DNA of 64,000 nt from Escherichia coli (lineage in GTDB: Bacteria; Pseudomonadota; Gammaproteobacteria; Enterobacterales; Enterobacteriaceae). The position numbers and the translations under genes are program-made. Where the stretch lies: NCBI RefSeq assembly GCF_003334355.1, contig NZ_QOWP01000007.1, one strand, 5' to 3'. Shown piece after piece: positions 46,024 to 49,023 of the stretch. The notes under the pieces are model-generated. The model was not told the DNA's origin. It ran no database searches and was given only the letters and a program-made list of their open reading frames with translations. Numbering within the stretch: position 1 is the stretch's first letter; every line of letters begins with the position of its first letter.

Positions 46024-47532
46024 ATGAATAAATCGCTGGTAGCGGTAGGCGTCATTGTTGCGCTAGGCGTAGTCTGGACAGGCGGCGCATGGTATACAGG
46101 CAAGAAGATTGAAACCCATCTCGAAGACATGGTCGCGCAGGCGAACGCGCAACTCAAACTGACAGCTCCTGAATCCAACCTGGAAGTGAGTTATCAAAAC
46201 TATCATCGCGGCGTATTCAGCAGCCAGTTGCAACTGTTGGTGAAACCCATTGCCGGGAAAGAAAATCCGTGGATTAAAAGCGGTCAGAGCGTCATCTTCA
46301 ACGAATCGGTTGATCATGGTCCCTTCCCGCTTGCCCAGCTTAAAAAACTGAACCTGATCCCGTCGATGGCATCAATTCAAACCACGCTGGTTAATAACGA
46401 AGTAAGCAAACCACTGTTTGATATGGCAAAAGGTGAAACGCCTTTTGAGATTAACTCGCGCATTGGTTACAGCGGTGATTCCAGTTCCGATATTTCGCTC
46501 AAGCCACTGAATTACGAGCAAAAGGATGAAAAAGTCGCCTTTAGCGGCGGCGAGTTCCAGTTAAATGCTGACAGAGACGGCAAAGCCATCTCCCTTTCCG
46601 GGGAGGCGCAAAGTGGTCGGATAGACGCAGTTAACGAATACAACCAGAAAGTGCAGTTGACCTTTAATAATCTGAAAACCGACGGTTCCAGCACGCTGGC
46701 AAGTTTTGGTGAGCGTGTAGGAAATCAAAAACTGTCACTGGAAAAAATGACCATTTCAGTGGAAGGCAAAGAACTGGCACTGCTGGAAGGCATGGAGATC
46801 AGCGGTAAATCGGATCTGGTCAATGACGGTAAAACGATCAATAGCCAACTGGATTACTCGCTAAACAGCCTGAAGGTACAGAATCAGGATCTGGGCAGCG
46901 GCAAGCTGACTTTAAAAGTCGGCCAGATTGATGGTGAAGCCTGGCATCAGTTTAGCCAGCAATATAACGCGCAAACTCAGGCGCTGCTGGCACAGCCAGA
47001 AATTGCCAACAACCCCGAACTTTATCAGGAGAAAGTGACGGAAGCCTTCTTTAGCGCCCTGCCGCTGATGCTGAAAGGCGATCCGGTGATTACTATCGCG
47101 CCGCTAAGCTGGAAAAACAGTCAGGGTGAAAGTGCCCTGAATCTGTCGCTGTTCCTGAAAGATCCGGCAACGACTAAAGAAGCGCCGCAAACGCTGGCGC
47201 AGGAAGTAGATCGTTCGGTTAAATCTCTGGATGCGAAACTGACCATTCCGGTGGATATGGCAACTGAGTTTATGACTCAGGTAGCGAAGCTGGAAGGTTA
47301 TCAGGAAGATCAAGCGAAAAAACTGGCGAAACAGCAAGTTGAAGGTGCATCAGCAATGGGGCAGATGTTCCGTCTGACCACCTTGCAGGACAATACCATC
47401 ACCACCAGCCTGCAATATGCTAACGGTCAGATAACGTTAAATGGGCAGAAAATGTCGTTAGAAGATTTTGTTGGCATGTTTGCGATGCCAGCTCTTAACG
47501 TTCCGGCTGTACCGGCAATTCCGCAGCAGTAA
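46024..47532 (+). CDS. ydgA: Periplasmic/membrane-anchored protein YdgA (DUF945)
   Basis: 502 aa MNKSLVAVGVIVALGVVWTGGAWYTGKKIE. Confidence 0.88.
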   Translation: MNKSLVAVGVIVALGVVWTGGAWYTGKKIETHLEDMVAQANAQLKLTAPESNLEVSYQNYHRGVFSSQLQLLVKPIAGKENPWIKSGQSVIFNESVDHGPFPLAQLKKLNLIPSMASIQTTLVNNEVSKPLFDMAKGETPFEINSRIGYSGDSSSDISLKPLNYEQKDEKVAFSGGEFQLNADRDGKAISLSGEAQSGRIDAVNEYNQKVQLTFNNLKTDGSSTLASFGERVGNQKLSLEKMTISVEGKELALLEGMEISGKSDLVNDGKTINSQLDYSLNSLKVQNQDLGSGKLTLKVGQIDGEAWHQFSQQYNAQTQALLAQPEIANNPELYQEKVTEAFFSALPLMLKGDPVITIAPLSWKNSQGESALNLSLFLKDPATTKEAPQTLAQEVDRSVKSLDAKLTIPVDMATEFMTQVAKLEGYQEDQAKKLAKQQVEGASAMGQMFRLTTLQDNTITTSLQYANGQITLNGQKMSLEDFVGMFAMPALNVPAVPAIPQQ

Positions 47533-47541
47533 TTCACGGCC

Positions 47542-47578
47542 AAAACGCCGGAGAATTTTCACTCCGGCGTTTTCATCT
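47542..47578 (+). terminator. Rho-independent terminator after ydgA
   Basis: AAACGCCGGAG-N8-CTCCGGCGTTTT followed by CATCT. Confidence 0.7.
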
Positions 47579-47596
47579 GAAAACAAACCAGAGATT

Positions 47597-47694
47597 GCCT
47601 GATGCGCTACGCTTATCAGGCCTACCTTTTCCTGCAACACTTTGAATTTATGAGTTTTTGTAGGCTGGATAAGGCGTTTACGCCGCATCCGGCA
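47597..47694. repeat. BIME: two REP elements in inverted orientation
   Basis: GCCTGATGCGCTACGCTTATCAGGCCTAC (47597..47625) and GTAGGCTGGATAAGGCGTTTACGCCGCATCCGGCA (47660..47694). Confidence 0.85.
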
Positions 47695-47724
47695 TAAAAA
47701 ACGCGCACTTTGTCAACAATCTGA

Positions 47725-47752
47725 AACGCCGGAGGTTTTTCTCTCCGGCGTT
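47725..47752 (-). terminator. Hairpin AACGCCGGAG-N8-CTCCGGCGTT immediately after uidC stop
   Basis: Same stem sequence as the ydgA terminator; weak T-tract. Confidence 0.45.
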
Positions 47753-47757
47753 ATTTC

Positions 47758-49023
47758 TTACTTCAGCATAAAGTCATATTGAATACTCATTTTCACATCC
47801 CAGTAATTCAGGCGATCGCCCAGCGCACTGCCATCGCGCTTTTCCCGCCCTTTATCGGCAGCAAGAAAGAAATTCATCCCTTGTAACGGCCCTTCGCTGA
47901 CCCGATAGTTCATACCACCTAAGATACCCGCGCCTTCAATCCGCACATCTCGTTTACTGGATTCATAGCCGCGAGTCACAATCGGTGCAAATGTCAGTGT
48001 AAATTGCGGCGTTAAACGATAGTTGACGCCCAATTGCCAGGACTGCATTCCTTCACGGTTACGATCAAGACTTAATGAAAAGGGATAGCCAATGTCGGTA
48101 TCCACCACGGCACCATTCATTGCATGGCGCAAATAACCACCACTGCCAAATACGCTTCCCCACGGCGCATTCCAGGTCAATTGTCCACTAACCAACGCCG
48201 TTTCATTGGGCTGGCTGGTATTACGACTTAAACCTTCGAGCTGCGCGTAAAAGCCGAGCAACTCCCCTTTCAACGTATAATTCGGGTCGAGCGGTATGCT
48301 TTTCTCGAGAATACTTTGTATCTGATTGGAAACATCTTTCTGTACCGATCCCCCCAGAGAATAGCGACTGGTATCATCATGCCAACTGGCGGCTAAAAAA
48401 GAACGTGCGCGATGTTTATCGTATTTTCCCGTCTGGCTGTTATACACCCCTTCATCACGAATACCGGTTGTTGAATCAGTCCATAAAAATACTCGTGAAC
48501 GCCACATTCCCCACAGATCAATATTTGGTGTTAAAGCCCAATAACCTAATGCTCCTTCAGAAACTGTCGGTAATGTACGTTGCGAACTGCCAGCCATTAA
48601 CGGAATACGATAAGGTAAGCTACCATAACTATAATACGTCCCGAAGCGACCTAATTTAAGCAGGCTATTTTCACTGGGTTTTATTTTTACTGCCCCCAGG
48701 GCAAAGCCAAAACTTTTATCACCATCAAGATACCACCGGGTACTCATATCAGCACGAGCACCTAATTTATAAACATAATACGCCCCGCCTTCAACGCCAA
48801 TAATATTGGAATAATAACCACTATTGAAATCGAGCAATCCTCCCTGTACCCATGCGTAAATATCTCTTCCCGCGCCAGCACTGGGCTTATCCGCCCTGCG
48901 CAATTCGTTTTTCAGTCTGATGCGTAGTCCCGCTTCATCGTCAGCCAGTTGCGCCGCATAAGCAGAGGTAAGGCCAGAGGCAGCTGTCAGGCAAATAACG
49001 GCCATGGCCACTATTTTTCTCAT
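47758..49023 (-). CDS. uidC: Outer-membrane glucuronide porin UidC
   Basis: 421 aa with signal peptide MRKIVAMAVICLTAASGLTSAYA. Confidence 0.9.
   Translation of the reverse strand: MRKIVAMAVICLTAASGLTSAYAAQLADDEAGLRIRLKNELRRADKPSAGAGRDIYAWVQGGLLDFNSGYYSNIIGVEGGAYYVYKLGARADMSTRWYLDGDKSFGFALGAVKIKPSENSLLKLGRFGTYYSYGSLPYRIPLMAGSSQRTLPTVSEGALGYWALTPNIDLWGMWRSRVFLWTDSTTGIRDEGVYNSQTGKYDKHRARSFLAASWHDDTSRYSLGGSVQKDVSNQIQSILEKSIPLDPNYTLKGELLGFYAQLEGLSRNTSQPNETALVSGQLTWNAPWGSVFGSGGYLRHAMNGAVVDTDIGYPFSLSLDRNREGMQSWQLGVNYRLTPQFTLTFAPIVTRGYESSKRDVRIEGAGILGGMNYRVSEGPLQGMNFFLAADKGREKRDGSALGDRLNYWDVKMSIQYDFMLK

Follow-up and report, generated by a model that had tools for sequence, protein, structure and literature searches.

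Why does the short spacer between the convergent Escherichia coli genes ydgA and uidC carry the same hairpin twice, once on either side of an inverted pair of REP elements? We address this question for a stretch of 64,000 nucleotides of E. coli DNA (contig NZ_QOWP01000007.1; "the window" in the following), in which the gene order at the locus is manA, ydgA (+ strand), convergent uidC (- strand) and uidB, and in which the ydgA-uidC spacer comprises 225 bp. A sequence-only reading of the window had noticed this arrangement and had suggested a local duplication or a composite repeat, not two independent terminators. Within the 64 kb there are exactly two matches to the pattern AACGCCGGAG-N8-CTCCGGCGTT, located at 47544-47571 and 47725-47752, and none is expected by chance (100 shuffles of the window). 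The stem is thus indeed found on both sides of the REP pair; the coordinates given by the earlier reading hold for the second copy (47725..47752), and the end of the first, placed at 47572, is off by one and lies at 47571. The direct-repeat unit has 29 nt (47543-47571 and 47724-47752) and is identical at 26 of 29 positions. The stems of the two copies do not differ at all, i.e. all three mismatches are located within the 8-nt loop, which reads AATTTTCA on the left and GTTTTTCT on the right. The features of the locus are compiled in Table 1.

Table 1. Features of the ydgA-uidC locus; positions are those of the window
Feature	Position	Strand	Basis or remark
ydgA (DUF945 protein), upstream convergent gene	46024..47532	+	ORF; name from matching E. 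coli records
Diverged ydgA 3' tract, tied to the filled allele	47442..47518	+	15-18 differences from empty-site alleles
Left hairpin copy, loop AATTTTCA, then TTTTCAT; putative ydgA terminator	47543..47571	+	pattern match, fold
BIME-1 left flank motif TTCATCTGAAAACAAACCAGAGATT; family consensus GAGACTGATGACAAACGCAAAACT	47572..47596	+	paralogs (45 loci) align from 47577
Z1-type REP, 29 nt, ends CTAC, i.e. inverted "iREP" orientation	47597..47625	+	invariant in 5 aligned copies
L linker, 34 nt	47626..47659		TGCAA-N-TTGAATT core conserved in paralogs
IHF-consensus-like site ATTCAAAGTGTTG within the L linker	47635-47647	-	1 mismatch to WATCAANNNNTTR
Y-type REP, 35 nt, starts GTAG	47660..47694	+	sequence, paralog alignment
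BIME-1 right flank motif TAAAAAACGCGCACTTTGTCAACAATCTG	47695..47723	+	kept in paralogs up to ...CAACAATCTG(A)
Right hairpin copy, loop GTTTTTCT (+ strand); putative uidC terminator	47724..47752	-	pattern match, fold
uidC (glucuronide porin), downstream convergent gene	47758..49023	-	ORF and annotation

Each hairpin copy has a perfect stem of 10-12 bp and is located next to a stop codon. The left copy starts 10 nt after the ydgA stop codon (47530-47532), and its + strand is predicted to fold into an RNA hairpin with -22.2 kcal/mol (z -6.1). The right copy ends 5 nt short of the uidC stop codon (47758-47760, - strand), and for its - strand a fold with -18.4 kcal/mol (z -4.5) is predicted. The U-runs are short, i.e. 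UUUUCAU 3' of the left copy and, on the - strand, UUUCAGAUU 3' of the right copy, which is followed by TTTCAGATT on this strand; a terminator scan picked out the right copy alone, and this only when read on the + strand. Judged from their sequence, the two strong stems, well placed after the stop codons and accompanied by short U-runs, are putative intrinsic terminators.

The element between the hairpins is an ordinary BIME-1, consisting of a single Z1-L-Y REP doublet, in agreement with the architecture given for BIME-1 in PMC3333891 and PMC8266576. One Z1 REP and one Y REP (for the lengths of y, z1 and z2 REPs see PMC8266576) are inverted relative to each other and separated by a 34-nt linker, with no tandem reiteration, and the element lies between the stop codons of two convergent genes and is present or absent as a whole among isolates (1,751 vs 3,667 genomes, see below). 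The L linker of BIME-1 has been described as carrying an IHF site (PMC3333891), and the linker in the window has a candidate IHF site. The BIME-1 core pattern has one match in the 64 kb, which aligns with four paralogs. Rfam yields only a sub-threshold match to the REP-derived naRNA4 (47663-47704; 37 bits vs a gathering score of 59.5). In the empty-site genomes the best paralog of the insert covers window positions 47577-47724 with ~84% identity, and paralog matches stop exactly at the hairpins. As the paralogs span 47577-47724, the repeated unit is the REP pair together with its flank motifs (~24 nt on the left side, ~29 nt on the right), without the hairpin. The ends of the family consensus are GAGACTGATGACAAACGCAAAACT... 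and ...GCGCACTTTGTCAACAATCTG(A), and most of the complete copies have sharp ends, GAGACTGATGAC... and ...CAACAATCTG(A). The element thus comprises 152 bp (47572-47723), bounded by imperfect terminal inverted repeats (GAGACTGATGACAA / TTGTCAACAATCTG), and the insert is composed of this element and the second 29-bp hairpin copy. Folded as single-stranded DNA, the 152 nt form two separate REP hairpins (z -2.8) and no single long REPIN hairpin. The dinucleotide of the C/T cleavage site of TnpA_REP is found in GAGAC/TGA and AATC/TGA (slashes mark the cleavage site), but the conserved sequence runs past both, which speaks neither for nor against such a site defining the element ends.

The origin of the second hairpin becomes apparent when alleles are compared. 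In a megablast search with the spacer among 5,426 complete E. coli genomes the full spacer, i.e. the filled allele, is found in 1,751 genomes, and in the other genomes the match begins exactly at the right hairpin. With the single-hairpin allele as query, 3,667 of the 5,426 genomes exhibit a contiguous empty allele, in which a single hairpin resides in a 44-bp spacer, as checked directly in three empty-site genomes. Both alleles together account for 5,418 of the 5,426 genomes, so the locus is essentially biallelic. According to the alignment the filled allele is longer than the empty one by 181 bp, i.e. the 152-bp element and the second hairpin copy, and the loop of the right hairpin is the same as that of the single hairpin in the empty allele of strain SCU-102. 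The second hairpin copy is found only alongside the BIME, and no E. coli genome has more than two hairpin units, all of them located at ydgA-uidC. Since the empty allele has one hairpin, the paired hairpins constitute a long repeat resembling a target-site duplication. The local duplication suggested by the sequence-only reading is thereby borne out, about two thirds of the E. coli genomes having a single hairpin; its other suggestion, a composite repeat, fails, as the unit is confined to this locus. The filled allele is present in K-12, B/BL21, HB101 and other small genomes, the empty allele in O157:H7, O111, Nissle 1917 and uropathogenic strains. In the O157:H7 strain OK1 uidC is annotated as frameshifted, and E. 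coli EM10-18-28 (L003:1535-1869) has lost most of the uid operon, with partial pseudogene fragments between the single hairpin and uidR.

The same relation between alleles is found at other loci. Empty-site junctions were predicted for artJ-rlmC and uspB-pitA, at both of which K-12 is filled, and then searched in E. coli genomes. The predicted single-hairpin junction is present in up to 1,914 genomes for artJ-rlmC (of six sampled high-coverage rows five are contiguous and one is a filled allele joined from two pieces) and in 840 genomes for uspB-pitA, whose BIME-1 paralog lies between two copies of a hairpin quite unlike that of ydgA-uidC. At both loci the filled allele exceeds the empty one by the element and one additional hairpin copy. 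A direct repeat that is single in the empty site is hence demonstrated at the three loci having both alleles, and in each case the element is located at the feet of a hairpin that is duplicated in direct orientation. The cueO-gcd locus belongs to a "left-only" type: the element adjoins the 3' foot of a hairpin, which is not duplicated, and 5 nt are replaced at the junction. Among four E. coli strains (L256-L259) the cueO-gcd spacer exists in four allelic forms, i.e. empty, with the K-12 BIME-1, with a remnant in Nissle, and with three REPs. The Nissle remnant fits a deletion between GGCATGAA repeats, one of which is formed by the 3' arm of the target hairpin and the element start, the other by the end of the Y REP.

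How general this architecture is was assessed by a metagenome scan with the BIME-1 core, which yielded 120 loci; 115 copies with at least 160 nt of flank represent 45 distinct loci. The left flank of each locus was aligned to its own right flank, with 1,980 mismatched left/right pairs serving as null. Thirteen of the 45 loci score above the 99th percentile of this null (0.45 expected), and ten lie above every null pair. The direct scores are higher than the inverted ones in nearly all cases, and the loops are in direct orientation, which rules out an inverted fold-back origin of the flanking repeats. The repeats are specific for their locus, 18-37 nt long and nearly all stem-loops, located 0-2 nt from the element on both sides, and in 10 of 15 loci there is a single T-run, which lies past the copy on the side of the Y REP. 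The flanking hairpins differ from one BIME-1 copy to another, and the repeat is present at 11-15 of the 45 loci only. Inspection by eye of the 27 copies with intact flank motifs revealed hairpins on both sides in 11, on the left only in five, on the right only in four and on neither side in seven cases; four further repeat-positive loci have truncated flank motifs. Thus, about one third of the BIME-1 loci share an H-BIME-H architecture, each with a hairpin of its own, and the genome-wide association with REP elements that the earlier reading had proposed to look for holds for a direct hairpin repeat bracketing BIME-1 but not for the AACGCCGGAG...CTCCGGCGTT motif itself, which is restricted to one locus.

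Several individual loci illustrate the range of junctions. The mog-satP paralog is bracketed by a diverged hairpin pair. Cluster 37, from a species other than E. coli, has a perfect 23/23 repeat with a stem similar to that of the window (AACGCCGGA/TCCGGCGTT), and its predicted empty site was not found in E. coli. In cluster 14 (L225) the repeat of 35-37 nt is made up of the hairpin, the T-run and CGCCAAAAGCAA, which resembles the inner left flank motif; it continues for 19 nt past the hairpin, the left flank motif is truncated, and the junction looks as if it had been made by microhomology. In clusters 36, 34 and 33 (L170, L145, L144) the hairpin copies differ by paired changes that keep the stem, e.g. 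GGT...ACC vs GGC...GCC, suggesting that both copies are under selection to fold.

Based on these observations we consider it probable that terminator hairpins serve as integration sites of BIME-1, with the element entering at the foot of the hairpin, which is often duplicated in the manner of a long target-site duplication, an event whose enzymology we can only infer. The structure of the DNA would direct integration: the target would be opened at both feet of an extruded hairpin, which are adjacent in the hairpin or cruciform although they are 18-37 nt apart in the linear sequence, the element would be joined between the two breaks, and repair synthesis would copy the hairpin on each side. 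The flanking repeat and the palindromic insert would in turn favor precise loss by slippage, resulting in presence/absence polymorphism. We further speculate that the breaks may be made by the REP-associated Y1 transposase (TnpA_REP/RAYT), acting on single-stranded hairpins. The mechanism of REP/BIME dissemination has been called unknown, and TnpA_REP cleaves and joins single-stranded DNA beside REP hairpins (both PMC3333891, PMC8266576), and RAYT/TnpA_REP is the obvious candidate enzyme. Arguing against integration at hairpin feet, the enzymology closest to that of RAYT, i.e. that of the Y1 enzymes of the IS200/IS605 type, makes no target duplication (PMC3333891), and the repeat is limited to the minority of loci given above and missing at cueO-gcd. 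In a broader and more tentative form, which we regard as possible, BIME-1/REPIN integration in enterobacteria would be directed to the feet of terminator hairpins with duplication of the whole hairpin, either by staggered opening or by re-copying at the fork.

The history of the allele in the window is more complex than that of a simple insertion. An orthologous hairpin is located 3' of ydgA in E. albertii and E. fergusonii, both of which have no uidC there; the hairpin is old, being the putative ancestral ydgA terminator. Divergence between filled and empty alleles amounts to 1-3% along ydgA and uidC, but to ~20% in the last ~77-90 nt of ydgA. In the tract 47442-47518, 12-13 differences are at third codon positions and only 2-3 amino acids are changed. 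These mostly synonymous changes (12-13 of 18 at third positions) point to an old divergence under purifying selection and rule out a mutational burst. Among 5,424 E. coli genomes the tract is at least 99% identical to the window in 1,750, 80-90% identical in 3,668 and in between in six, and this split is in complete linkage with the BIME. The distance to E. albertii is 14% for the filled and 19% for the empty haplotype. No divergence spike beside the insertion is found at uspB-pitA (176 nt of flank), and at artJ-rlmC divergence is uniform on both sides (~6-7%), i.e. the spike is specific to ydgA. Thus, the filled allele is either old or imported, and as in addition the hairpin copies differ at 2-3 of 29 positions, the ydgA-uidC insertion is not recent and its origin not directly readable. 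We infer that the insertion at the ydgA terminator is old within Escherichia and that phylogroup-A-like E. coli obtained or kept the allele via recombination, the crossover on the right side having fallen within or at the right hairpin. ydgA-uidC is hence a poor witness of the insertion event, but the general pattern is unaffected.

Two further observations concern ydgA in other genomes. In E. albertii (L253:3036-3060) GGCTGATGACAA is located 5 nt past the hairpin and matches the consensus of the BIME-1 left flank at 11 of 12 positions; it is followed by unrelated sequence, the contig stops 210 nt past ydgA, and the motif may be what is left of an old BIME-1 that occupied this site. The ydgA gene of GCA_022716275.1 (L254:321-1829) is a mosaic, its first ~600 nt being 24-40% diverged from E. 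coli; the remainder of ydgA, the empty-site spacer and uidC are E. coli-like, with 0-4 differences per 100 nt.

Other explanations of the paired hairpins have to be weighed against integration at hairpin feet. It is hardly credible that two terminators, one per gene, evolved independently and converged on one stem: although each lies a few nt after a stop codon and has a stable fold, and although unrelated phyla have this stem by chance as well, the copies are identical at 26 of 29 positions, including five of eight loop bases, and have the same orientation, 3,667 genomes have one hairpin serving both genes, and the second copy exists only together with the BIME. The recurrence of the stem became apparent when 100,044 species genomes were scanned for the hairpin motif, with only unrelated taxa among the matches listed. 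Outside Escherichia the stem is a generic GC-rich palindrome, and a species-wide scan is consequently uninformative on outgroups. Roseibium sp. (L055:353-1021) has two AACGCCGGAG...CTCCGGCGTT copies on one contig, 640 nt apart, the sole such locus among the matches listed. Very improbable, too, is a dispersed composite family, in which hairpin and REP would have been copied round the genome as one unit. Beyond the local look of the window, only the similar stem of cluster 37 speaks for it; with at most two units per E. coli genome, at ydgA-uidC only, with paralogous BIME-1 matches ending at the hairpins and with other copies having hairpins that are all different, the hairpin is not part of what is dispersed.

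Recombination could also have brought in the whole arrangement, as the BIME may have been imported, together with the left hairpin and the diverged 3' end of ydgA, from a distant Escherichia lineage into phylogroup-A-like E. coli. The hairpins would then be the orthologous terminators of donor and recipient, joined by homology-facilitated illegitimate recombination, and not the product of duplication upon insertion. The ~20%, mostly synonymous spike, which is confined to 47442-47518 and fully linked to the element, agrees with this, as do the uniformity of the filled haplotype (at least 99% in 1,750 genomes), the left loop AATTTTCA, which resembles the loops of E. fergusonii and E. albertii, and the 11/12 match to the left flank motif 5 nt past the hairpin of E. 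albertii. However, the right end of the element adjoins the resident hairpin exactly, as at about a dozen unrelated loci; this would follow from a donor that already contained H-BIME-H and a right-hand crossover inside the hairpin, but would be a coincidence under an illegitimate join. In addition, uspB-pitA has the same architecture without divergence in 176 nt of flank. Import accounts for the arrival of this allele, not for hairpin repeats around BIME-1 in general, and we regard it as quite unlikely to be the source of the pair. Copy-choice during replication is unlikely as well, if to a lesser degree. Here, a nascent strand that has passed the hairpin would dissociate as both strands fold, acquire or copy a BIME, and resume synthesis from the template hairpin's proximal foot; the hairpin would thus be copied twice with no staggered double-strand cleavage. 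The variable repeat lengths (18-37 nt), the variable left junctions with truncated flank motifs and the repeat of cluster 14, which reaches into flank-motif-like sequence and thus suggests microhomology, are in line with such a process, and in vitro TnpA_REP joins a free 3'-OH to a cleaved REP strand (PMC8266576). Nevertheless, no consistent microhomology between element ends and target flanks is discernible by eye across the loci, and the element ends are sharp in most complete copies. The variable junctions themselves, i.e. truncated flanks and cluster 14, fit copy-choice as well as staggered cleavage.

In its composition the element is no different from the BIME-1/RIP/RIB elements of Gilson, Bachellier and Hofnung, of Oppenheim, and of Boccard and Prentki, having the same inverted Y and Z1 units, the ~34-nt L linker and an IHF-like site, occurring as a single copy at the 3' ends of transcription units, and being present or absent among isolates; the latter is stated in PMC1187871, citing Bachellier 1997. 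What the accessible descriptions do not contain is the abutment to a hairpin or its repetition on both sides at about one third of the loci. We found no mention of hairpin duplication or hairpin-foot targeting in the accessible REP/BIME literature, which covers Ton-Hoang 2012, Corneloup 2021, Nunvar 2010, Bertels and Rainey 2011, Park 2021, Delihas 2011, Darling 2010 and Nielsen 2024; the primary BIME papers of the 1990s (Bachellier 1997, Boccard and Prentki 1993, Gilson 1991) may contain an earlier description of flanking repeats.

Like BIME-1, the REPINs moved by RAYT/TnpA_REP (Bertels and Rainey; Nunvar; Ton-Hoang and Chandler) are mobile, extragenic, slowly transposing REP doublets, and the enzyme proposed for them targets single-stranded hairpins, beside which it cleaves. 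Their proposed mechanism is IS200/IS605-like and proceeds without target duplication (PMC3333891), whereas here duplications of 18-37 bp of a structured target are frequent, being found at ydgA-uidC and about one third of the loci. MITEs and insertion sequences likewise comprise short non-coding elements with imperfect terminal inverted repeats, flanked by direct repeats that are single in empty sites, as is the case here at three loci and suggested by the 13 of 45 loci above the 99% null. Their duplications, however, are typically 2-14 bp and of fixed length, whereas those around BIME-1 are variable and correspond to a whole stem-loop, the inverted repeats are imperfect and some junctions truncated, and no cognate IS was recognised for the terminal inverted repeats of BIME-1. 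The IS1634 family is the only one reported to have comparably long and variable duplications. Structure-directed targeting of palindromic extragenic sites is shared with group IIC introns, IS1397/ISKpn1 and the IS110-family elements ISPpu9/10 (PMC2817692, PMC12288879), all of which differ in that they insert after or inside the hairpin, duplicate no or only a few bp and encode their own enzyme. Finally, in the deletion of palindromic inserts between direct repeats by slipped mispairing, as in precise transposon excision, alleles also differ by the insert and one repeat; this process accounts for loss only; no repeat arises from it.

As an element, the BIME-1 of this locus is of a known kind, and it is the recurrent hairpin-duplication footprint that is worth following. 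REP and BIME sequences are among the most abundant repeats of enterobacteria, and a reproducible insertion footprint is a clue to their spread. The footprint predicts that the structure of the target matters, that the break points are located at the feet of the stem and that precise loss, to which a palindromic insert between direct repeats should be prone, restores a single hairpin. If true, it would be the first sequence footprint of the long-sought transposition step of REP/BIME, and the mechanism would be unlike that of IS200/IS605, involving either a hairpin or cruciform that is extruded and opened in a staggered manner or a hairpin that mediates re-copying at the fork. For annotation, paired identical terminators round a REP doublet are to be read as one terminator plus an insertion. 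In the H-BIME-H arrangement each convergent gene keeps a hairpin beside its own stop codon. If hairpin-foot duplication holds true, each flanking gene would thus keep a terminator, so that new insertions would be harmless by design. Taken together, a footprint that abuts and duplicates hairpins would explain not only why BIME-1 resides at gene ends without disturbing termination, but also why BIME-1 elements behave as clean presence/absence markers.
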